A DNA stretch of 62,973 nt from an uncultured Bacteroidota bacterium (GTDB lineage Bacteria > Bacteroidota > Rhodothermia > Rhodothermales > UBA10348): positions 1 to 62,973 of the forward strand of contig CALEEY010000207.1 of the NCBI GenBank assembly GCA_937877085.1, given 5' to 3'. The notes below the pieces were generated by a model that saw only the letters and a list, made by a program, of their open reading frames with translations, made no database searches and was not told the origin of the DNA. Position numbers and translations under genes: made by a program. Below are positions 12,676-32,392 of the stretch, piece after piece. How positions within the stretch are numbered: position 1 is the stretch's first letter; each line of letters opens with the position of its first letter.

Positions 12676-13980
12676 TCAACTGCCAATCGTCTTTTTAAGG
12701 CGTTCACGGATGCTTGCTGTGGAAACGTTCCCCGGCGTTCCGACTGTGGAGTACGCTTCAGAAAGCTTCATTTGAGCCTGTTCTGACCATAATGAGGGGG
12801 TCTGAGCTGCGTCGCGATACGCTTCTCGAAATGGTTTACCCTTCACAACCTCGGACAAAGCAGCCGCCGTGGCAAAGAGTTCGGGGTCGCGGGCGTTGTC
12901 CAATGGTTCTGATCTAAACGTCAGTCCCGCTAGTATCCCTTGTGTGGCCTCCAAAAGGTCTTTGAGGATGATGACCGCCCTCATCACGGAACCCTTCGTG
13001 AGCTGTAAATCCCGATGATATCCAGAGGGGAGATTGGCTGGAATCCCCAACAGCACTTGAAATTCGCCCGATAAGCGATGCATGGTGGCCCGTGCCAGTT
13101 CAGCTATATCTGGATTTTTTTTCTGGGGCATGATGCTACTCCCTGTGGTCAAGACATCGTTTAACTTGACAAATCCAAACTCTGCCGTCGCGTATAACAC
13201 CACATCGGAGGCGAGTCGATTGATCGTTGCCGCGCACTGAAGTAAGGCATGAACCACTTCTAGCTCATACTTTCCCCGGCTCAACTGCACGGCTGTGACG
13301 TTCTCCTGGACACGCTCAAAACCGAGGCTTTCGGCCACTTCCTGTCGAGGAAGGTTTACGTAGGGAATGCCGTACCCGGCCCCACTTCCCAACGGAGACG
13401 CGTTTATGCGTTTTCGAGCCTGAATCACTAAATCTAGGTCTTCCACCAAACTTTCGGCGTACCCAGCAGCCCAAAGCGCCACAGTACTCGGCATGGCCCG
13501 CTGCATGTGGGTATAACCCGGTAAAAATTGGTCTTGGTTGGCATCCGCCATGTCCGCCAATTGCAGCACGAGCCGTTCGATTTCAGATGCAGCATCATCC
13601 AAATTGAAACGAAGCCATAGGCGAATAGCCGCTAACACTTGATCGTTCCGAGAGCGACCAGTGTGGATTTTTTTGCCTATATCGCCCACTTTTTCGGTTA
13701 GAAAACGTTCAATCACCGTGTGGCAGTCTTCGTCTTCAAGCGATATCTGGATATCCCCATTCTCGAATGCGTCGGCTAAATCCGAAAAGGCACCATCCAA
13801 TGCGGTTAGCTCGTCTTCCGTTAGGATGCCTGCGGTAACCAATCCGGCCGCATGGGCGAGTGAAGCCGCGGCATCGAATGGCAGTAACATCATGTCCCAC
13901 ATGGGGTCATCGCCAACGGTGAATCGTGTTACCCACGAAGCAGTCTCTGTTCCTTTAAACCAAATAGGACGATCAGACAT
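12676..13980 (-). CDS. argH: Argininosuccinate lyase
   Basis: Fumarate-lyase signature GSSIMPQKKNPD. Start trimmed to MSDRPIWFKG (ATG 13978-13980), which overlaps the argE stop by 8 nt. Confidence 0.93.
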   Translation of the reverse strand: MSDRPIWFKGTETASWVTRFTVGDDPMWDMMLLPFDAAASLAHAAGLVTAGILTEDELTALDGAFSDLADAFENGDIQISLEDEDCHTVIERFLTEKVGDIGKKIHTGRSRNDQVLAAIRLWLRFNLDDAASEIERLVLQLADMADANQDQFLPGYTHMQRAMPSTVALWAAGYAESLVEDLDLVIQARKRINASPLGSGAGYGIPYVNLPRQEVAESLGFERVQENVTAVQLSRGKYELEVVHALLQCAATINRLASDVVLYATAEFGFVKLNDVLTTGSSIMPQKKNPDIAELARATMHRLSGEFQVLLGIPANLPSGYHRDLQLTKGSVMRAVIILKDLLEATQGILAGLTFRSEPLDNARDPELFATAAALSEVVKGKPFREAYRDAAQTPSLWSEQAQMKLSEAYSTVGTPGNVSTASIRERLKKTIGS

Positions 13981-15046
13981 GATGTAGCTCGAAATATGCT
14001 TTAATAATACGCTCGTAGGTCGCACAACTTTCAATGAGTTCTTGAATGTCGATGTGCTCGTCGGCCGTATGGGACAACCGACTGTCTCCTGGCCCGATTT
14101 TAACGGCAGGGATGTCTTTTACATGGATCCAGTCCGACATGGTCGGCGATCCAAACGTGCTGGACCCGCTTGAACCCAAAAGGCACGCCTCTACAATGGT
14201 TTCCGCGGGATCCGTATCAACAGAAATAAATCGCTTAGAATGAATGTGAACCGTCGATTCTATTTCCTGCTGAATCAACGCGGCAATTTCATCGTGGTCG
14301 TACAATGGCGTCGTGCGAATGTCTAAGAAAGCGGTACACGAATCGGCGATCATGTTGCGCGCAGAGCCGCCGTTGACCACCGTTACGTTGATAGTGGTTT
14401 TGCCGAGGTATGGGTGAACCCGGTCCAACGAAAATTGATCGAGACGGGCCAGATCCCGGACCATCATCGAAATCGCATTCTGCCCCTCCTCCGCCCTTGC
14501 GGCATGAGATGATTTGCCGTGCGCTTCCAATCGGAGAATGAGCAGTCCTTTTTGGGCTACACACGGCTGCATGTGCGTCGGCTCGCCAATCAACGCCGCG
14601 GCGGGCCGTGGGAGCTGATCAATAATTTGCTCCAGGCCGTTGTTTTCCCCTCCAGTTTCTTCGCAAGCCGTAAACGCAACCACGATTTTCCCCTGCGGCA
14701 TATATCCTGCGTGCGCTAATCGGCATACCGCGGTAGCCATGCTGGCAACGCTGGCTTTTGCATCGACCGTACCCCGTCCAAATACTTTTCCGTTCGAAAT
14801 CGTGGGTACAAACGGTGAAAAGGGATGATTGGAGGATGGTGGGACGACGTCAAGGTGGGAATTAAGAAGCAATACCCGATCCCCCTCTCCCCACTCGGCC
14901 ACCACATTGTCGCCAGCGCGGCTCACGTTCAGGCCAGCCTGGGTGAGATGCGTTTCTAGGAGGGTAGCGGCTTCCGATTCTTGATGGCTTAAAGATGGAA
15001 TAGCTACCAGCCGACGATGGAGTACGCAGACGTCTTGTTCAAGCAT
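13973..15046 (-). CDS. argE: M20-family N-acyl-ornithine deacylase (ArgE-like)
   Basis: M20 motifs (LNSHLDVVP, GRGTVDAKA, CEETGG) and operon position. Start trimmed to MLEQDV (ATG 15044-15046), which overlaps the argB stop by 8 nt. Confidence 0.75.
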   Translation of the reverse strand: MLEQDVCVLHRRLVAIPSLSHQESEAATLLETHLTQAGLNVSRAGDNVVAEWGEGDRVLLLNSHLDVVPPSSNHPFSPFVPTISNGKVFGRGTVDAKASVASMATAVCRLAHAGYMPQGKIVVAFTACEETGGENNGLEQIIDQLPRPAAALIGEPTHMQPCVAQKGLLILRLEAHGKSSHAARAEEGQNAISMMVRDLARLDQFSLDRVHPYLGKTTINVTVVNGGSARNMIADSCTAFLDIRTTPLYDHDEIAALIQQEIESTVHIHSKRFISVDTDPAETIVEACLLGSSGSSTFGSPTMSDWIHVKDIPAVKIGPGDSRLSHTADEHIDIQELIESCATYERIIKAYFELHHV

Positions 15047-15818
15047 GGCTGACCTCAATAAGTTGTGTTCCGCCTGCTTTCGAGGCCAACGAAGCTGGTC
15101 CCGATATCCAAACGGACGAAATACCGCGGCTAAGGGCAGAAAAACCAATATCTGTTTTCACTTTCATGCCTCCGGCGATCCAGCCTTTTGAAACACCCTC
15201 GCGCGACTGGGCTAAGGATAATCGTCGTATCGGGGTTTTGTCTTCGTTTAGCACGCCGCCCGATTCGGTGACCAATATCAGTTCATCGGCTTGAATAGCC
15301 GTGGCAATTTCGAGGGCTACCGTGTCTGCGTTAATGTTGAATAGCGAACCATTTTGGTCGATTCCTGGTGGACACACGACCGGCATAATACCCGATTGAA
15401 GAAGGGCCAATAGCGCCGTTGGATCCGCATGTTTAAAATCCCCCACGTGTCCAAAATCGACCGTTTTTCCGTCTACTGTCCAAAGAGGTCTTTTCGAAAC
15501 CTGAATCAGTCCCGCGTCTGCGCCGCTCATACCTAACGACCGAATGCCAGCCTGAGAGGCTTTGGCCACCAGCTCAACGTTGAGTTGGCCACGAATTATC
15601 CATTTAACGATATCGAGATCTAAATCGGTAGTTACTCGGCGCCCTTCAACTATGGTGGGCGTATGTCCTAGTCGCTCCGCCATGGCCGTGGTCTGTGGAC
15701 CGCCCCCATGAACCAAAACCACCTCTGACGCCTGCTGAAGGACGGCCAATGCTTCGAAGAAGGCGTCCAACGGCTGCCCTAGCAAGGCGCCACCTATTTT
15801 TACGACGGTTCGCTTCAT
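15039..15818 (-). CDS. argB: N-acetylglutamate kinase
   Basis: VVKIGG.., VLVHGGGPQ and NINADT motifs. Start trimmed to MKRTVVKIGG. ATG 15816-15818 overlaps the argF' TGA (ATGA). Confidence 0.92.
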   Translation of the reverse strand: MKRTVVKIGGALLGQPLDAFFEALAVLQQASEVVLVHGGGPQTTAMAERLGHTPTIVEGRRVTTDLDLDIVKWIIRGQLNVELVAKASQAGIRSLGMSGADAGLIQVSKRPLWTVDGKTVDFGHVGDFKHADPTALLALLQSGIMPVVCPPGIDQNGSLFNINADTVALEIATAIQADELILVTESGGVLNEDKTPIRRLSLAQSREGVSKGWIAGGMKVKTDIGFSALSRGISSVWISGPASLASKAGGTQLIEVSHA

Positions 15819-16957
15819 TGGTATTTGTCGGCGGGATGGGAGCCGCCCGCGTTGGAGGAGCCCGGGCTGGCAGAGCTCGCGTTGGAGGCAGCGGGGCCAG
15901 GGCTGGAAGCGTTCGCGTTGGCGGGGCCAGGGCTGGTAGGATTGGCATTTCGCTCCCAAAGCCAGTTAAGAATCGCTTTTTGAGCGTGCAGTCGATACTC
16001 GGCCTGATCCAAATGGAGTGTATTTGGACCGTCCAGTACCTCATTGTCCACCACCACTCCCCTTCTTACAGGAAGACAATGCATAAACTTGGCTTGGCCT
16101 TCGATTGTCCGAGCCATGACCTGTGGCGTGATCCTCCAGTTGGCATGAGCCTGCCGCTCGACTAGTTCGAGCGCTGGGTCGAGGTATCTCGTTTTTCCTC
16201 CCCAAGCCTTTGCATAGATGATGTGGGCATCTTTGGCGCTGGATTCAAGATCATTGGACTCTGAAACCGATCCTCCCATGTTGGCGGCCGAACGGCGGGC
16301 CAGGTTCATGACCTCCGGATCCAGTTCAAAACCATCGGGACGGGCAACCGTGACGTTCATACCCAAACGGGCTGCCATCAACAAGGCTGAATTTGGTACA
16401 GCCATTGGAAGCGCCTTTGGGTGGTATGCCCATGACAAAACAAATTTCTTTCCCTGGGGATTTCCAGCAAAGTGACGGGTCAGAACGGCGGCGTCGGCCA
16501 GTGCCTGGCACGGGTGTCGAGCAGCGGACTCCAAATTCAAAACAGGCACGGCCGACGCCGCCGCAAACTGCTTCAACATGTTGTCTTGCATATCGTTATC
16601 CCAATTGGTACCCGATGCAAACAATCGTACGCCAAGCAAATCGACATATCTGGACAACACCCCAACGGCTTCTTGAATGTGCTCCGCTTCTGCGCCTAGC
16701 ATGGGGGCCTTTTTGTCCCAAGCAAAACCCCAGGTTCCGCTGCCAGGCGTAACGGTAATTGGAGTGGCGCCAAGAGATGCAGAGGCCAATTCCATCGATA
16801 CACGTGTTCGAAGTGAGTCGTTGAAAAAAACCAATCCTACGCTTTTCCCAAGGTGGGTGTGCTCCAAACGTCTACGATCGGCGCCGTTTAGCAGGGCCTG
16901 TTCGATACAAGCCTTCCAGTCAGTTTCTGCTACATCAGCCCAATCGAGTAAGTGCAT
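15815..16957 (-). CDS. argF': N-acyl(acetyl/succinyl)-L-ornithine carbamoyltransferase with a low-complexity C-terminal tail
   Basis: Has FNDSLRTR, HPCQALAD and HCLPVRRG. The OTCase ornithine motif DxxxSMG is absent (YAKAWGG instead), as in AOTCase/SOTCase. The last ~40 aa (NPTSPGPANANASSPGPAASNASSASPGSSNAGGS...) are encoded by tandem repeats. Confidence 0.85.
   Translation of the reverse strand: MHLLDWADVAETDWKACIEQALLNGADRRRLEHTHLGKSVGLVFFNDSLRTRVSMELASASLGATPITVTPGSGTWGFAWDKKAPMLGAEAEHIQEAVGVLSRYVDLLGVRLFASGTNWDNDMQDNMLKQFAAASAVPVLNLESAARHPCQALADAAVLTRHFAGNPQGKKFVLSWAYHPKALPMAVPNSALLMAARLGMNVTVARPDGFELDPEVMNLARRSAANMGGSVSESNDLESSAKDAHIIYAKAWGGKTRYLDPALELVERQAHANWRITPQVMARTIEGQAKFMHCLPVRRGVVVDNEVLDGPNTLHLDQAEYRLHAQKAILNWLWERNANPTSPGPANANASSPGPAASNASSASPGSSNAGGSHPADKYQ
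15848..15940. repeat. ~30-36-bp degenerate tandem repeat x3 inside the argF' 3' end
   Basis: cgcgttggRgg recurs at 15848, 15878 and 15914. ggggccagggctgg recurs at 15893 and 15923. Confidence 0.85.
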
Positions 16958-18138
16958 TACGCTACGACCTCCATTTTTGAAGCCAATATTTCATCTAAAG
17001 CAGCAAAAAAGGAATCAATTTCAGCATCTGTAACAACCCCTGGAGGCATTAGGCGCATAATATTCGGATCGGTAGAACCTCCAACCAGGATACCTTTTTC
17101 CCGTAAATCGGTAGCAAAGGCTCCCATCGGTTGGCCAAAGTCAATACCAATTAAACATCCGGCCCCCTGAATGCGGAGCCCACGCTCGTTGCATCCTTTT
17201 TCGAAACGGTCATAAATTTGGACCGAGCGTTCGGTCAGATTTTCATCAATAAGCACTTTAAGTGTCGCTTCTACGGCGGCCATGGCCAGAGGGGCTCCTC
17301 CAAAAGTCGTCCCTTGATCGCCATACCCAACGGTGGCCGCTACCTCGTCGCGAATCAGAACAGCTCCAACGGGAACGCCGCCGCCCAAACTTTTGGCAAA
17401 CGTGATCATGTCCGGTTCAATTCCAAGCACTTGGCTATACGTAAAGGCCCCGGTACGACCAATTCCGGATTGCACTTCGTCCATAATGAGCATCGATCCA
17501 GCTTCTTTGCAGGCAGCTGCAACCAACCTGAAAAACGACACGGGAGCTGTTCTCATTCCTGCTGTCGATTGAATGGGTTCTATGATGACTGCGGCCGGCT
17601 TGCTTTCACGGATCACGGCACACGTTTTTTCGGCGTCCCCAAACGGCACGAAGGTAACGGGTCCGAAGGACGATTCATGTCCCTTTCGATAGGGGGCTTG
17701 CCAGGTAACCGATAGGGCTCCCAACGATCTGCCGTGAAAATCCCCCTCCATGGCCACTATTCCAGAACGGCCCGTAGCTTTGCGGGCAATTTTCATGGCC
17801 GTCTCATTAGCCTCGGCTCCTGAATTGATAAAAAAGATGTTTCCCATCCCTTTGGGCGCCAACGCTGCAAGCGCCGCAGAGGCACGGGCGCGTGCTGGGG
17901 AATAAACAGCGTTTGAATAAAACAAAAGCTTATCGGCTTGATCTTTCACCGCTTGGACAACAGCCGGATGATTGTGCCCCGTAAACACCACACAATGCCC
18001 TCCATAGAGATCCAGATATCTTTTCCCGTCGGTATCTACCACCCACGCGCCACGTCCGGATTCAAGGGAAATGGGCCATTTACGATACGTGTTGAGCTGG
18101 GTAGCATCTTCCAGTTCCATCCATTCAGCTGAAGTCAT
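16957..18138 (-). CDS. argD: Acetylornithine (class III) aminotransferase
   Basis: DEVQSGIGRTG and FAKSLGGG (PLP lysine) motifs. The stop TAA shares one nt with the argF' ATG (TAATG). Confidence 0.9.
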   Translation of the reverse strand: MTSAEWMELEDATQLNTYRKWPISLESGRGAWVVDTDGKRYLDLYGGHCVVFTGHNHPAVVQAVKDQADKLLFYSNAVYSPARARASAALAALAPKGMGNIFFINSGAEANETAMKIARKATGRSGIVAMEGDFHGRSLGALSVTWQAPYRKGHESSFGPVTFVPFGDAEKTCAVIRESKPAAVIIEPIQSTAGMRTAPVSFFRLVAAACKEAGSMLIMDEVQSGIGRTGAFTYSQVLGIEPDMITFAKSLGGGVPVGAVLIRDEVAATVGYGDQGTTFGGAPLAMAAVEATLKVLIDENLTERSVQIYDRFEKGCNERGLRIQGAGCLIGIDFGQPMGAFATDLREKGILVGGSTDPNIMRLMPPGVVTDAEIDSFFAALDEILASKMEVVA

Positions 18139-18189
18139 AACAGTTTGAATTTTTTCTATTTAAAGCAATCAAAGGATTCACACCCAAAG

Positions 18190-19185
18190 TCAAGGAAGTA
18201 ATCCGGTTGTTTGGTCCATTCCCAGCGCCAAATTAACGTTTTGAATGGCCTGAGTCGCCGCACCTTTTAACAAGTTGTCGATCGCAAATCCAATGGCTAC
18301 TTGATTTCCCCTCTGAACCCATCCAATGTCGGTAAAAGGTGATCCAACGCTCCAGTGGAGTTCAGGCAATTGATTGGGCCACAGTCGCACGAGGGGACAA
18401 TCTTGGTAGGCTGCCTGAAAATACGGGCCGAACAGATCTGATGGAGTCTTTTCCCCACCAGAAATTTCCACTTGGGCGACCCCCCAGATTCCATCGGTCC
18501 AGGGCCCCGAAATGGGTACGAACGAGTAATGAACATCCGGCGCCATCTGATCGATTTCCGCTTCGTGCTGATGTTCAAATACTTTATACGCTTTCACATT
18601 GCCACTTCGGCTCGGAAAATGGGTCGTGTCCTTGGCCACGGCTCCCGATCCACTGGCACCAGTAAGCGCCGCTATGGCAACAGTAGCTGAGATACGGGCT
18701 TTGGAGAGCGGAAAAAGCGCCAACGATATCGCGGATGCAAAACACCCCGGATTGGCAATCAACTTAGTACCGGGAGGCGGCGGTCCGGTAATTTCGGGTA
18801 ATCCGTACCACGCCGATTCGAGCAATTCAGGACGAGGATGCGGCGCGCCATACCGTTTTTGATAGGTAGTCGCGTCTTTCAGGCGAAAATCGGCGCTCAT
18901 ATCAACAATCAGACCGGCAAACCCTTGGTCTAGGAGTTCCCCAACAGCCAGCGCTCCCTGACCGTGCCCAGCCGCGACAAAAATGACATCCACCGGTGTT
19001 TCAATACGGGCGGTGAAGTCCAAATCTGAAACGCCGCGCAAATGGGCGTGCGCCTTCCAAATGGGCTGGTTCTCATGGGAACGGCTGGTAACCGCATCGA
19101 GCCGCATTTCTGGATGCGCCAATACGTATTCGATCAGCTTTCTACCGACATAACCTGCGCCATGAAGAATTCCCACCCGTATCAT
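18190..19185 (-). CDS. argC: N-acetyl-gamma-glutamyl-phosphate reductase
   Basis: N-terminal Rossmann motif GILHGAGYVG. Catalytic Cys region ANPGCFASA. The ATG overlaps the upstream stop (ATGA at 19182-19185). Confidence 0.9.
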   Translation of the reverse strand: MIRVGILHGAGYVGRKLIEYVLAHPEMRLDAVTSRSHENQPIWKAHAHLRGVSDLDFTARIETPVDVIFVAAGHGQGALAVGELLDQGFAGLIVDMSADFRLKDATTYQKRYGAPHPRPELLESAWYGLPEITGPPPPGTKLIANPGCFASAISLALFPLSKARISATVAIAALTGASGSGAVAKDTTHFPSRSGNVKAYKVFEHQHEAEIDQMAPDVHYSFVPISGPWTDGIWGVAQVEISGGEKTPSDLFGPYFQAAYQDCPLVRLWPNQLPELHWSVGSPFTDIGWVQRGNQVAIGFAIDNLLKGAATQAIQNVNLALGMDQTTGLLP

Positions 19186-20252
19186 TCTGCAACCTCCCGA
19201 ACAGCCGGCGGCTTTAAATACGTGGCGATAAGATCCCCCATTTCCTGTGGATCCTCTCGGGCATTGATGGCCGGAATCCCCATAACCTGACGAATGTACT
19301 GACGACCGACGCCGTTATCCGTGACGGGTCCCGTTACAAGCGCGATACTAGCATGATACCTGTCCTTGAACAAGGTCTGAGCAGCCCAAATGCCAGCAAG
19401 GTCCACTCCGGTTACGATGTGAGCTACGCAAAATGACTGCAACTCCTTGTCTTGCAACAGTTCATCGACACCATAGTATCCAATAATTCCGTCTCCCAAT
19501 TCAATCACGATTACGTCTGGATCGGCGGTAGTGTTCAGGTGATGGATAATTCCCTTCACATTTTTGGCCATCGTTTTGGAGGCCGAACACACGATTCCGG
19601 TATCCGTAAATGTGGCAATGGCCACGGCACCGTGGCGTTCGATGAGTCTGACGTCGCGCATGAGGGATGCGCCCGTAGCTTTCGCTGCCGCCACACGATA
19701 TCCTTTACGGGATAAACGCTGCACTAACTCGCAACAAGCCCACGTCTTTCCGGTGTCCATAGCCGTTCCGCTAACAAAAATTAACGGACACGATTGGGTC
19801 AAGTTTTCGACTTCGGGAAGCGCATGGTCTTGTAAACGAGCATGAACCCACATGCCTTCAGACTGAACCATGGCCGCGCCGATCACTTTAACTCGAAGTG
19901 CGGGGCCCAGCGAAGGATGGTCCGAAGTACAGTTTCCGATGATTCCACCCAAATTGAGCACGTTTAGCGTATCTCCCGGCAGGGCAATTCTGGGCACCTG
20001 TCCACTATATCCTTTCAGCGCTTTCCGTTCGCCCAGCACGCCCACAAAGACGTCTCCTTTGGCGATGGTTCTGAATTCGCCATCGGAGCACTCAATCTGG
20101 TTGTAAATCGCTTTGGACTCGAGAGCCTCGACGACAATGCAGTATCCTTCTTGAGCTACCACATAGTCTGATACGGTAACATCCCTGTCCAATCCGGTTT
20201 TCGCGGCGGTTGAACAAACATAGGTTACTTGCATGGTATTCATTTTGGTCAT
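19182..20252 (-). CDS. Uncharacterised P-loop (SIMIBI/BioD-CobQ-DUF1611-like) protein embedded in the arg operon
   Basis: ATGA overlaps with argG (20249-20252) and argC (19182-19185). Has the Walker-A-like FVSGTAMDTGKT, the Walker-B-like DVIVIELGDGIIG, and an N-terminal ~150 aa I cannot place. Confidence 0.6.
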   Translation of the reverse strand: MTKMNTMQVTYVCSTAAKTGLDRDVTVSDYVVAQEGYCIVVEALESKAIYNQIECSDGEFRTIAKGDVFVGVLGERKALKGYSGQVPRIALPGDTLNVLNLGGIIGNCTSDHPSLGPALRVKVIGAAMVQSEGMWVHARLQDHALPEVENLTQSCPLIFVSGTAMDTGKTWACCELVQRLSRKGYRVAAAKATGASLMRDVRLIERHGAVAIATFTDTGIVCSASKTMAKNVKGIIHHLNTTADPDVIVIELGDGIIGYYGVDELLQDKELQSFCVAHIVTGVDLAGIWAAQTLFKDRYHASIALVTGPVTDNGVGRQYIRQVMGIPAINAREDPQEMGDLIATYLKPPAVREVAE

Positions 20253-21454
20253 GGCTTTGGAGTGGATGCGGAGCGAACTCGATGGGTTAAAAGTGACTGC
20301 AGGCCAAGAATGCGCGCAAACCCTCTAGCGTCCCGCCCATCCCACAATTGATTGCTCTCGCCGTACGTGGCGACCCCGGTGTCAAACAAAGAAAACGGGC
20401 TCTTTGTGCCTTGAATAGCAACATTTCCCTTGTACAGACTGATAGAAACTGTTCCCGTAACCGTTTCTTGGGATGAATTCATAAACGCCTCAATGTCCCT
20501 CAGAGCGGGATCAAAATATTGCGCTTCGTGGAGCATCATACCATAGAAATCGCCTAATTGGGCTTTGTGATACTGTTGCCAGCGTGACAATACCGTCTTT
20601 TCCAGTTCCCGGTGAGCCGGAATCAGAATGGCAGCGGCAGCTGCTTGAAAACCCACGCGGCCTTTGATACCCAAAATGGTATCTCCCACGTGAATAGCGC
20701 GGCCAATACCGTGCTCTTCTCCGATTCGGTTCAGTGCTTCAATCAATTCAACCGGAGACATGCTTGAACCATCGATGCTGACCGGAGTGCCCTTCTCAAA
20801 CCCAATCACAACGGAAACGGCCTGATCTGGCGAATCTTTAGGAGAGGGGGTCGGCCATGCACTGTCTGGAAGCGGCTTTTCGGTCGTTAGGGTCTCTTTT
20901 CCACCAACCGTCGTTCCCCAAAGCCCGGTATTGATCGAATAGGTGGTCGTGGAAGCAGAAACGGCATACCCCCTTTCCTTCAACCAGTTTGTCGTGTATT
21001 CGCGCGTTAGACCTAGGTCCCGAATCGGAGTGAGAATGGTCAAATCATCTCCAAGCACGGATAATGCTACATCAAATCGGATTTGGTCGTTTCCAGCCCC
21101 CGTCGAGCCGTGGGCCACTACCGAAGACTTCAGTTTGCGGGCCATATCGACCAAGGCCTTAGCCTGAACCACTCGGTCTGGACCTACACAAAGCGGGTAA
21201 ACTTCCCCGCGTAGCACGTTGCCCTTGATGAGGTACTGGATGGATCGTTCAAAAAGCTCGTCTCTGGCATCCACCAAGTAATGCCCGGCGGAGCCAAGCT
21301 CTTTGGCCCGAAGCTCAATTTGTTGGCATTCCAGTTCGCTGAGCCCCCCTGTGTTAACGGTAACGGTATACACAGGGACGTTGTGTTCTTCCCTCAGGTA
21401 CGGCACGCAAAACGACGTGTCGAGACCTCCACTAAAAGCAACTACAATTGACAT
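20249..21454 (-). CDS. argG: Argininosuccinate synthase
   Basis: AFSGGLDTS ATP-PPase motif, ..HGSTGAGNDQIRF.. About 400 aa. Confidence 0.95.
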   Translation of the reverse strand: MSIVVAFSGGLDTSFCVPYLREEHNVPVYTVTVNTGGLSELECQQIELRAKELGSAGHYLVDARDELFERSIQYLIKGNVLRGEVYPLCVGPDRVVQAKALVDMARKLKSSVVAHGSTGAGNDQIRFDVALSVLGDDLTILTPIRDLGLTREYTTNWLKERGYAVSASTTTYSINTGLWGTTVGGKETLTTEKPLPDSAWPTPSPKDSPDQAVSVVIGFEKGTPVSIDGSSMSPVELIEALNRIGEEHGIGRAIHVGDTILGIKGRVGFQAAAAAILIPAHRELEKTVLSRWQQYHKAQLGDFYGMMLHEAQYFDPALRDIEAFMNSSQETVTGTVSISLYKGNVAIQGTKSPFSLFDTGVATYGESNQLWDGRDARGFARILGLQSLLTHRVRSASTPKP

Positions 21455-21486
21455 GGCAAAATCGAGTTAAAAGTGCGCTTTAGGTA

Positions 21487-21523
21487 AATAAAAAAAGCGC
21501 CGGTTCCATACGGATCGGCGCTT
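21487..21523 (-). terminator. Intrinsic terminator 35 nt upstream of the argG ATG (candidate attenuator terminator)
   Basis: The minus strand reads aagcgccg-atccgtatggaac-cggcgctt followed by TTTTTTTATTT. Confidence 0.8.
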
Positions 21524-21558
21524 GAGTCGGTTGACGTAGTCGGGCTACATCAGGCTAC

Positions 21559-21645
21559 CTAACTTGCTACGAATCCGCATACCCCGAAGGATATCTGTCG
21601 GATTCGTCGGCGAAGACTGGTAGTAATATGGGTGGTAATGGTCAT
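21559..21645 (-). CDS. Candidate arginine-operon leader peptide (28 aa)
   Basis: My translation is MTITTHITTSLRRRIRQISFGVCGFVAS*. CGC CGA CGA ATC CGA gives 4 Arg in 5 codons at 21598-21612, overlapping the 5' arm of a 9-bp hairpin. Confidence 0.45.
   Translation of the reverse strand: MTITTHITTSLRRRIRQISFGVCGFVAS
21569..21607 (-). promoter_or_regulatory. Leader hairpin overlapping the Arg codons
   Basis: On the minus strand, acgaatccg (21607-21599) pairs with cggattcgt (21577-21569). An inner stem atatcc-UUCG-gggtat needs a G-U pair on the minus strand but gives a C-A mismatch on the plus strand. Confidence 0.6.
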
Positions 21646-21653
21646 AGAGTTCA

Positions 21654-21683
21654 ATTATACGGCTAAATATGGAATGCAATCAA
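21654..21683 (-). promoter_or_regulatory. Sigma-70-like promoter candidate for the arg leader
   Basis: TTGATT (21683-21678), 18-nt spacer, TATAAT (21659-21654). Only 8 nt lie between the -10 box and the leader ATG, which implies a near-leaderless transcript. Confidence 0.35.
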
Positions 21684-21690
21684 CCATTTT

Positions 21691-22080
21691 TCAAACTTCA
21701 TACGAATCTAAAACAGGGACATCGTTCCAAACCCTAAGGTGGTATTGTTGAAGCTGTTTTAACTGGTCTAGTCCGAGACGCGTCAACCGGTAATAAATGC
21801 GAGGCCGGCCACCCTGTTGATCCTCGTTCTTAACCGATCGTTTTTCTATGATTTTCCTCAACGCAAGCTGATCAAGAGAAACCCAGAGGCTACCCACGGT
21901 CACTTTCTTTTGTGCTCGGGAAACCATTTCAGCCATAATCGATGTGCTATAGGCGTCATTTCCGAGCACCATAATCGCGATCAATAAGATCTCATCGGCC
22001 CGGGAAAGCGGCCTTGAAGATGTCTTTATCGATATTTTTTGGGACGTTTTTGCCACGTGGTTCAGGATTGGGCGCGTCAA
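21691..22080 (-). CDS. PadR-like winged-helix transcriptional regulator
   Basis: ..ILLIAIMVLGNDAYSTSIMAEM...GSLWVSLDQLALRKIIEK...GGRPRIYYRLTRLG resembles the PadR wHTH. The start is uncertain (TTG at 22080 or GTG at 22056). Confidence 0.6.
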   Translation of the reverse strand: MTRPILNHVAKTSQKISIKTSSRPLSRADEILLIAIMVLGNDAYSTSIMAEMVSRAQKKVTVGSLWVSLDQLALRKIIEKRSVKNEDQQGGRPRIYYRLTRLGLDQLKQLQQYHLRVWNDVPVLDSYEV

Positions 22081-32167: not shown

Positions 32168-32392
32168 TCAGCTCGTTAGAATGCTGAGAATAATGGAAAT
32201 AATCACGAGGACAGCCAGAAGGACTGCTGCCAATGATTCCACTAGAAGCACTGCGAGAACGTCAATCAAATGGGAAGGAGTAGACATCGAAACAGCCTGA
32301 ACTGCAGCGGCCTTAGGCACCGGAAGAATCCCGTGTCTGCGAGCGGCAAGTGGCGTTGTAAAATTCGATGACAAAAACATGAAGTCCCGCAT
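32168..32392 (-). CDS. Small ORF upstream of ilvD with a Leu/Val/Ile-rich C-terminus (leader peptide or small TM protein)
   Basis: MRDFMFLSS...MSTPSHLIDVLAVLLVESLAAVLLAVLVIISIILSILTS*. 20 of the last 31 codons are L/V/I. Ends 72 nt before the ilvD ATG. Possible starts at 32392, 32380 or 32287. Confidence 0.4.
   Translation of the reverse strand: MRDFMFLSSNFTTPLAARRHGILPVPKAAAVQAVSMSTPSHLIDVLAVLLVESLAAVLLAVLVIISIILSILTS

Follow-up and report, generated by a model that had tools for sequence, protein, structure and literature searches.

A candidate arginine-codon leader-peptide attenuator upstream of the arginine biosynthesis operon of an uncultured Rhodothermia bacterium

The argG upstream region and its conservation

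The window (the whole stretch of DNA analysed, 62,973 nt; contig CALEEY010000207.1, assembly GCA_937877085.1) comes from an uncultured Bacteroidota bacterium of the class Rhodothermia, and on its minus strand a short leader element precedes a complete arginine biosynthesis operon. A preliminary description, made from the sequence, had read this element as an Arg-tRNA-sensing attenuator, an interpretation that the comparative and structural computation reported here supports. NCBIfam and Pfam scans place the putatively regulated operon at 12676-21454, in the order argG (20249-21454), a 356-aa gene (19182-20252), argC, argD, a gene resembling ornithine transcarbamylase (OTCase-like), argB, an M20 deacylase gene (argE-like) and argH (12676-14034). 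The same-strand genes downstream of the element thus make arginine, the amino acid of its control codons. Upstream on the same strand lie ilvC, leuB, leuA, leuC and leuD, followed by a PadR-like gene.

The gap between the PadR-like stop codon (21693-21691) and the argG ATG (21454) is 236 nt long (21690-21455), and all five features listed in the preliminary description were found in it. The top-scoring promoter-like site of our scan is TTGATT-N18-TATAAT (21683-21654; 10/12 positions match), made up of a −35/−33-like element, TTGATT (21678-21683), whose TTG is invariant in 15 aligned sequences of the window's clade, and a −10/−7-like element, TATAATTG (21652-21659), which the clade alignment also supports. 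A 28-codon open reading frame (ORF), MTITTHITTSLRRRIRQISFGVCGFVAS, runs from an ATG at 21645 to a TAG at 21561-21559 and holds four Arg codons in five, CGC CGA CGA (ATC) CGA, at 21612-21598. These codons lie in region 1 of the element, the 5′ arm of a hairpin (1:2, 21555-21623), a putative anti-antiterminator or pause structure whose core (ACGAAUCCG/CGGAUUCGU, 21607-21569) encloses a UUCG-capped inner stem. Region 2 (21566-21580) occupies the stretch 5-19 nt before the leader stop codon. Next come a middle hairpin (21532-21552), seen in the folds and in the consensus of the seven closest relatives, and a GC-rich terminator hairpin (regions 3 and 4, 21523-21495, −18.5 kcal/mol), which is the consensus of the 15 aligned sequences. 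Its U7 tract (21496-21490), a T-run invariant in the clade alignment, ends 35 nt before the argG ATG.

Folding of the whole gap (21455-21690) gave a minimum energy of −66 kcal/mol (z = −3.85 against dinucleotide shuffles), and the hairpin built from the Arg codons belongs to this minimum-energy fold. An Arg-run ORF combined with a good terminator occurs in no other intergenic region of the window. A simple terminator scanner did not pick up the arg leader terminator, because its loop exceeds 8 nt.

We gathered relatives through ArgG, from genome loci, metagenome loci and contigs encoding close ArgG homologues, and compared 23 distinct argG upstream regions from the window's clade, Rhodothermales and Balneolales; the folding set comprised 21 sequences and the clade alignment (A1) 15. 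A short ORF with an in-frame Arg run and a terminator-like hairpin lies directly upstream of argG in all 23. Close relatives, at 66-91% ArgG identity, carry an orthologous leader in every case: L161 has MIKTAHSTTSLRRRIRQISSGVCGFVASAVA (in short MIKTAHSTTSLRRRIRQ..), L164 MTNSPHSTTRLRRRIRLVS.., L165 MKMSPYSTNSLRRRVRSES.., L168 ..ATRRLRRRIRS.., L081 ..FFRLRRRVRRLS.. and L083 MTTTITSHTLRRRFRRVRS.., and L171, L174, L001 and L175 are further members of the window's clade with the same feature. The arrangement recurs with different nucleotides in Rhodothermales (L002-L004, ..RRPRRRP..; L176, Rhodothermus bifroesti according to its ArgG name, ..VRRPRRPRGGG..) and in Balneolales (L005 and L086, ..VRRRPRR..; L026, ..NRRRRFRRRF..). 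In every folded sequence (21/21) the leader stop codon is followed, 22-44 nt further on, by a hairpin of −15 to −30 kcal/mol with a T-run behind it. Conservation of the small ORF and of its Arg run, on which the preliminary description had staked its reading, therefore holds in all relatives read, and ORF, run, terminator and competing pairings recur in three lineages.

The combination also exceeds chance. A strict scan for at least four Arg codons in six followed by a terminator, run over 955 kb from 160 argG loci, gave eight matches on the plus strand, all directly upstream of argG, and three scattered matches on the minus strand.

The simplest different account of the hairpin and U7 is that they merely terminate the ilv-leu-PadR unit, with the arg operon served by a promoter of its own and the small ORF present by chance. 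Between the PadR stop (21691) and the leader promoter, which begins 8 nt later, there is no other terminator, so transcripts from upstream must reach the arg leader hairpin, and it probably ends them as well; we take this as an added role and not as an alternative explanation. As a full account, termination of the upstream unit is very improbable: a promoter-like element and an Arg-run ORF always stand between the upstream gene and the hairpin, the reading frame is kept across indels, and only 35 nt separate U7 from the argG ATG. The neighbours, too, show the hairpin to be more than a PadR/leu terminator, since promoter-like element, Arg-run ORF and terminator all stay with argG where the PadR gene is missing and leuD adjoins (L161, L164, L165, L166) and where the upstream gene is divergent (L175) or is the unrelated folD (L176).

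Promoter spacing and reading of the leader ORF

The short distance between the −10 element and the leader ATG had been named as a weak point of the attenuator model. The comparison removes it, as the spacing is conserved: from the end of the TAnnnT hexamer to the ATG it is exactly 8 nt in 13/14 sequences of the window's clade (clade A), the window included, and otherwise it is 7 nt (L175 and Balneolales L005 and L086), 10 nt (L176) or 22-23 nt (Rhodothermales L002-4). Bacteroidetes promoters carry a −7 motif, TAnnTTTG, which both the clade consensus (TAnnTTnG) and the window element TATAATTG resemble. The conserved short spacing suggests that the leader ORF is leaderless or nearly so. Leaderless sensory ORFs have a precedent in the polycysteine ORFs of mycobacteria (10.1101/834739).

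Immediately upstream of the leader promoter −35 of three Rhodothermales sequences we also observed a conserved, palindrome-like element, GGAAGCGCTNCC (L002 ~2735-2760 and equivalents in L003/L004), which could be a transcription-factor site acting alongside the attenuator.

Several features indicate that the leader ORF is translated. The distance from the ATG to the CGACG core is 21, 33, 36, 42, 45 or 54 nt, always a multiple of three despite several indels, and the start codon keeps its place relative to the promoter. Between relatives, Arg codons change synonymously (e.g., CGC/CGT and AGG/AGA, L005 vs L086). Nearly all codons of the run are CGU, CGC or CGA, which a single inosine-containing tRNA-Arg would decode.

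These observations bear on the possibility that the terminator answers to an RNA-binding protein or a riboswitch-like RNA and that a CG-rich motif, CGACGAGUCCGA, gives rise to the Arg codons as a by-product. Within the window's clade structure and codons are hard to separate, for the CGACGA.TCCGA core is nearly invariant there, conserved as nucleotides beyond what coding for Arg would need. Beyond the clade they come apart: Rhodothermales and Balneolales write the in-frame Arg run with other nucleotides (CGA CGU CCU CGA CGC CGA; CGC CGC CGC CCA CGU AGG) and form different helices. The fixed distance between promoter and start codon and the frame-preserving indels point to translation, and no Rfam family matches the element, so we regard control by a protein or a riboswitch as unlikely.

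In the window (TITTHITT, 21618-21642, −) and in L083 (TTTITSHT, 2263-2286) the N-terminal part of the leader abounds in Thr and Ile, which recalls thr leaders. We considered and rejected a Thr/Ile sensor (MTITTHITT; L083 MTTTITSHT): the closest relatives are only S/T-rich at this position and lack such a run (L161 MIKTAHSTTS, L164 MTNSPHSTT), and a ribosome stalled there would leave region 2 unfreed. The stretch is probably an A/C-rich unstructured start region and not a second sensor.

Mutually exclusive structures and the proposed mechanism

To compare the competing folds, we modelled in each of the 21 sequences a ribosome whose A site holds the final Arg codon of the run, masked the RNA to 12 nt past that codon and folded the free RNA as far as the last nucleotide of the terminator loop, a point at which the 3′ arm is still unmade, with shuffled sequences as controls. 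In this stalled state the free segment pairs with the 5′ arm and loop of the terminator, with a gain of −6.8 to −18.6 kcal/mol in 20/21 sequences; the gain is better than the shuffled mean (−3.9 to −7.5 kcal/mol) in 20/21, and the Fisher-combined p of ~7e-14 overstates the significance because the sequences are related. The antiterminators arise from unrelated sequences, for example UCGGGAGA/UCUCCCGA in L002 and CAUACGGAA/UUCCGUAUG in L081.

In the window, the alternative pairing previously proposed between 21581-21573 and 21515-21507 is real, and its reach is wider than had been described: with a ribosome stalled on the Arg run, 12/16 nt of the terminator 5′ arm and loop pair with 21580-21566. 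A second suspected weakness, that the pairing covers mostly the terminator loop, is likewise lifted: the antiterminator captures region 3 nucleotides 21521-21520 and 21517-21508, taking up 4/6 nt of the GCGCCG stem, and it therefore extends into the terminator stem.

The other two ribosome states yield the opposite outcome. Without a ribosome, most region 2 nucleotides pair into the segment that a stalled ribosome would cover (19/21 sequences; 12/12 nucleotides in the window), in part with the Arg codons themselves. All these region 2 nucleotides precede the leader stop codon, so a ribosome that continues takes them out of play; once the ribosome has reached the stop codon, terminator formation is predicted for every sequence whose folded segment contained the terminator (three segments ended before it). 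The leader thus combines a short ORF in which codons for the regulating amino acid cluster (28 codons, 4 Arg in 5) with a computed terminator before the first gene, antiterminator (2:3) and anti-antiterminator (1:2).

In alignment A1, 68.8% of cells are paired in the terminated state and 67.8% in the antiterminator state, compared with 33-40% and 27-41%, respectively, in slid controls, a contrast that is inflated because the window sequence served as the source of the named structures. Covariation scores are 0.203 (terminated) and 0.263 (antiterminator) against 0.136 or less in slid controls, and for the named-structure counts 0/500 shuffles reached the observed values. The terminator consensus that RNAalifold finds in the 15 sequences shows compensatory changes from CG to UA, the seven closest relatives alone return all three hairpins, and in the middle hairpin 7/8 pairs are changed on both sides in at least one sequence.

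Besides the inflated contrast with slid controls, a number of results weigh against the attenuator. The antiterminator fails in L163 (gain −1.9 vs a shuffled mean of −4.6 kcal/mol, p = 0.86), and with individual p values ranging from 0.003 to 0.86, eight further sequences lie above 0.05. On all 15 clade sequences RNAalifold recovers the terminator only, because the upstream helices shift register between sub-clades, which is why we relied on constrained folds of single sequences and on named-structure counts; among the seven closest relatives compensatory changes occur at only 4 pairs, with a covariation term of ~0. The window leader has only four Arg codons. Its antiterminator has the lowest energy when the stall is at the middle Arg codon and not when it is at the first or the last, and in L081 and L002-4 the minimum-energy fold keeps the terminator. 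As the antiterminator is not always the equilibrium fold, the model requires kinetic, co-transcriptional control, as in classical attenuators.

A further alternative, an independent gene of ~155 nt for a small RNA or small protein with its own promoter and terminator and without cis regulation of argG, would account for the promoter-like site and the strong terminator, and short terminated transcripts of attenuators can act in trans as well. We give it very little weight, given the strict linkage to argG over three lineages with changing neighbours and the mutually exclusive pairings tied to the positions of the Arg codons.

With an Arg-run ORF and a refoldable terminator conserved before the arg operon, arginine sensing by ribosome stalling is probable, and we consider it likely that the element is an Arg-tRNA-sensing, ribosome-mediated transcription attenuator. 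For its operation we infer a transcription start, a stall and a response to arginine or Arg-tRNA charging as follows. Transcription would begin on the leader AUG or no more than ~2 nt from it, and a ribosome would translate the 28-codon leader. When Arg-tRNA is scarce, it would stall on CGC CGA CGA AUC CGA (21612-21598) and cover region 1; region 2 (21580-21566), thus freed, would pair with the emerging 5′ arm and loop of the terminator (21521-21508), and this antiterminator would block termination and let the arg genes be transcribed. When Arg-tRNA is plentiful, the ribosome would pass through region 2 to the stop codon (21561-21559), no antiterminator would form, and the hairpin at 21523-21495 with its U7 would terminate transcription 35 nt before argG. 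In the absence of translation, regions 1 and 2 would pair and the terminator would form too. The switch would control read-through into argG-X-argC-argD-argF′-argB-argE-argH, and the lineage would probably sense arginine through ribosome stalling and not only through an ArgR repressor.

The same leader could in principle sense free arginine, or work as a nascent-chain arrest peptide in the manner of fungal AAP or TnaC, instead of reporting tRNA-Arg charging. Within the window's clade the peptides keep a motif, RRR[IV]R, and upstream ORFs of other Bacteroidota arg operons end in ..RRP plus 0-6 codons and a stop, which recalls stalling at termination. Between lineages, however, the peptides are unconserved outside the Arg run. 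The stop codon context is not conserved, and the geometry of run, region 2 and terminator in the window's family fits charging-dependent stalling, which makes a nascent-peptide sensor a poor candidate here.

Some neighbouring genes deserve mention. The PadR-like gene (21691-22080, −), which separates leuD from the arg leader, occurs in L163, L168, L170, L171 and L174 and is missing from L161 and L164-L166; it is an optional insertion at the junction of the leu and arg operons. The 356-aa gene (19182-20252, −) overlaps both argG and argC by 4 nt and has no NCBIfam match; it is conserved without a confident family, its sub-threshold matches being to P-loop proteins (CbiA and DUF1611_C, E = 6e-4; dethiobiotin synthetase P-loop in PDB, E = 0.04), and in nearly all relatives read the slot between argG and argC holds a gene of 350-364 aa without Pfam domains. 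As the window's clade lacks the GNAT gene found before argG in other Bacteroidota, the 356-aa gene might supply the missing first step, glutamate N-acylation. A 38-codon ORF, MSTPSHLIDVLAVLLVESLAAVLLAVLVIISIILSILTS (32170-32286, −), with a very high content of Leu, Val and Ile, is found 74 nt before the start codon (ATG, 32095) of the gene that opens the ilv-leu cluster, taken as ilvD, in a region that folds well (z = −3.0). We rejected it as a second attenuator, since it has no U-tract terminator behind it; it could encode a small membrane protein, or a leader peptide for branched-chain amino acids built on another design.

Arg-rich upstream ORFs in other Bacteroidota and comparison with known attenuators

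Upstream of arg operons, ORFs ending in ..RRP plus 0-6 codons and a stop occur in forward frames at 21/148 loci and in reverse frames at 4/148. A looser motif, RR.RR, is not enriched over all loci (32 forward-frame vs 27 reverse-frame loci), and we therefore make no phylum-wide claim from it. Where a GNAT gene stands before argG, ORFs of the ..R(F)RRP-stop type are located 70-300 nt ahead of it, in Aquimarina (L021, L037, L040-L043; ..RRFRRPLGV*), Flavobacterium (L028, L032; F. beibuense NRRRFRP*) and at L015, L046, L056, L092, L113, L137 and L143. Conserved hairpins without a U-tract come after them, for example GAAGUAGG-UGCG-UCCUACUUC in Aquimarina, which could mean stalling at termination or nascent-peptide sensing. 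In Muribaculaceae and related bacteria (L059 2200-2253, L069 ~2180-2245, L122, L158) the GNAT-argG operon is preceded, at a distance of ~100 nt, by a conserved short ORF with the ending ..N(H)RHVRR[CR]A*; conservation there extends to the nucleotide block AGACACGTCCGACGAYGTGCCTAGGGAGGGCA, and a small hairpin overlaps the stop codon, with a T-run after it in L059 and not in L069.

The RRP-stop ORFs could form a second class of Arg-sensing upstream ORF with a mechanism of its own. It is possible, though we hold it tentatively, that Arg-sensing upstream ORFs are widespread in the control of Bacteroidota arg operons, replacing ArgR or working alongside it, in at least two designs. One may be the leaderless Arg-run terminator/antiterminator attenuator of Rhodothermales, Balneolales and the window's clade; the other, in Flavobacteriia and other GNAT-first lineages, could be the RRP-stop ORFs, acting by stalling at termination or by nascent-peptide sensing.

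Textbook control of arginine biosynthesis is exerted by the ArgR repressor, and attenuation by a leader peptide is known for His, Trp, Leu, Thr, Ile/Val and Phe and, more recently, for Cys. At gathering thresholds Rfam has no match in the whole window (including His_leader, Trp_leader, Leu_leader, Thr_leader and Leu/phe_leader), and a permissive Rfam scan of 21400-21750 returned only noise (E > 1). In the literature, including the surveys of the Breaker laboratory and of Naville and Gautheret, we found no Arg-codon attenuator of a bacterial arg operon; older surveys may hold an earlier prediction. By its predicted working the element is a classical leader-peptide attenuator, in which every defining feature open to computation was found, and it lies outside every Rfam leader family. 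If this is true, arginine joins the amino acids sensed through tRNA charging, and classical attenuation operates, apparently from a leaderless start, in a phylum largely without Shine-Dalgarno initiation. The element would then offer an annotation signature for arg-operon regulation in Rhodothermia and related Bacteroidota.

The enterobacterial trp, his, leu, thr, ilvGMEDA/ilvBN and pheA attenuators share with it a short ORF in which codons for the amino acid that the operon makes form a run, a layout of four regions (1:2, 2:3, 3:4), a region 1 that overlaps the control codons and an intrinsic terminator just before the operon. Here, in contrast, it is putatively arginine that is sensed, in Bacteroidota (Rhodothermia) and without a match to an Rfam leader sequence or covariance model; the ORF probably begins at or within 2 nt of the transcript 5′ end and lacks a Shine-Dalgarno sequence, region 2 is part of the ORF, and the antiterminator encloses an extra hairpin. 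Fungal AAP, the peptide of the arg-2/CPA1 upstream ORF, detects free arginine by way of the nascent chain at the stop codon and represses translation, with no terminator involved. As is proposed for the present element, it is an upstream ORF before an arginine biosynthesis gene and confers arginine-dependent control through ribosome stalling; it differs in being eukaryotic and in being no sensor of a codon run or of tRNA charging.

A bacterial precedent for sensing arginine through consecutive Arg codons of an upstream ORF is orf34 of the Salmonella speF leader, where pausing at such codons reports arginine availability and switches alternative mRNA folds (PMC6386406). That leader controls polyamine synthesis and not arg genes, it works by way of Rho and RNase G and not by an intrinsic terminator competing with an antiterminator, and the two ORFs are non-homologous. 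Lineage-specific upstream ORFs with cognate codons that compete with a terminator stem have also been described upstream of cysS in Rhodobacterales (uORFC-8-2, PMC8632094) and of ilvB in Corynebacterium (PMC10272879), candidates of a type recognised from conservation alone; these belong to other amino acids and other lineages, and none has been reported for arginine biosynthesis. The mycobacterial polycysteine short ORFs (Canestrari et al., bioRxiv 10.1101/834739) are leaderless sensory ORFs, as the present one may be, and share with it a codon run for the amino acid of the downstream operon; in them a stalled ribosome remodels the RNA structure downstream, as is proposed here. Amino acid and phylum differ, and the canonical intrinsic terminator with its U7 tract points here to control at the level of transcription.

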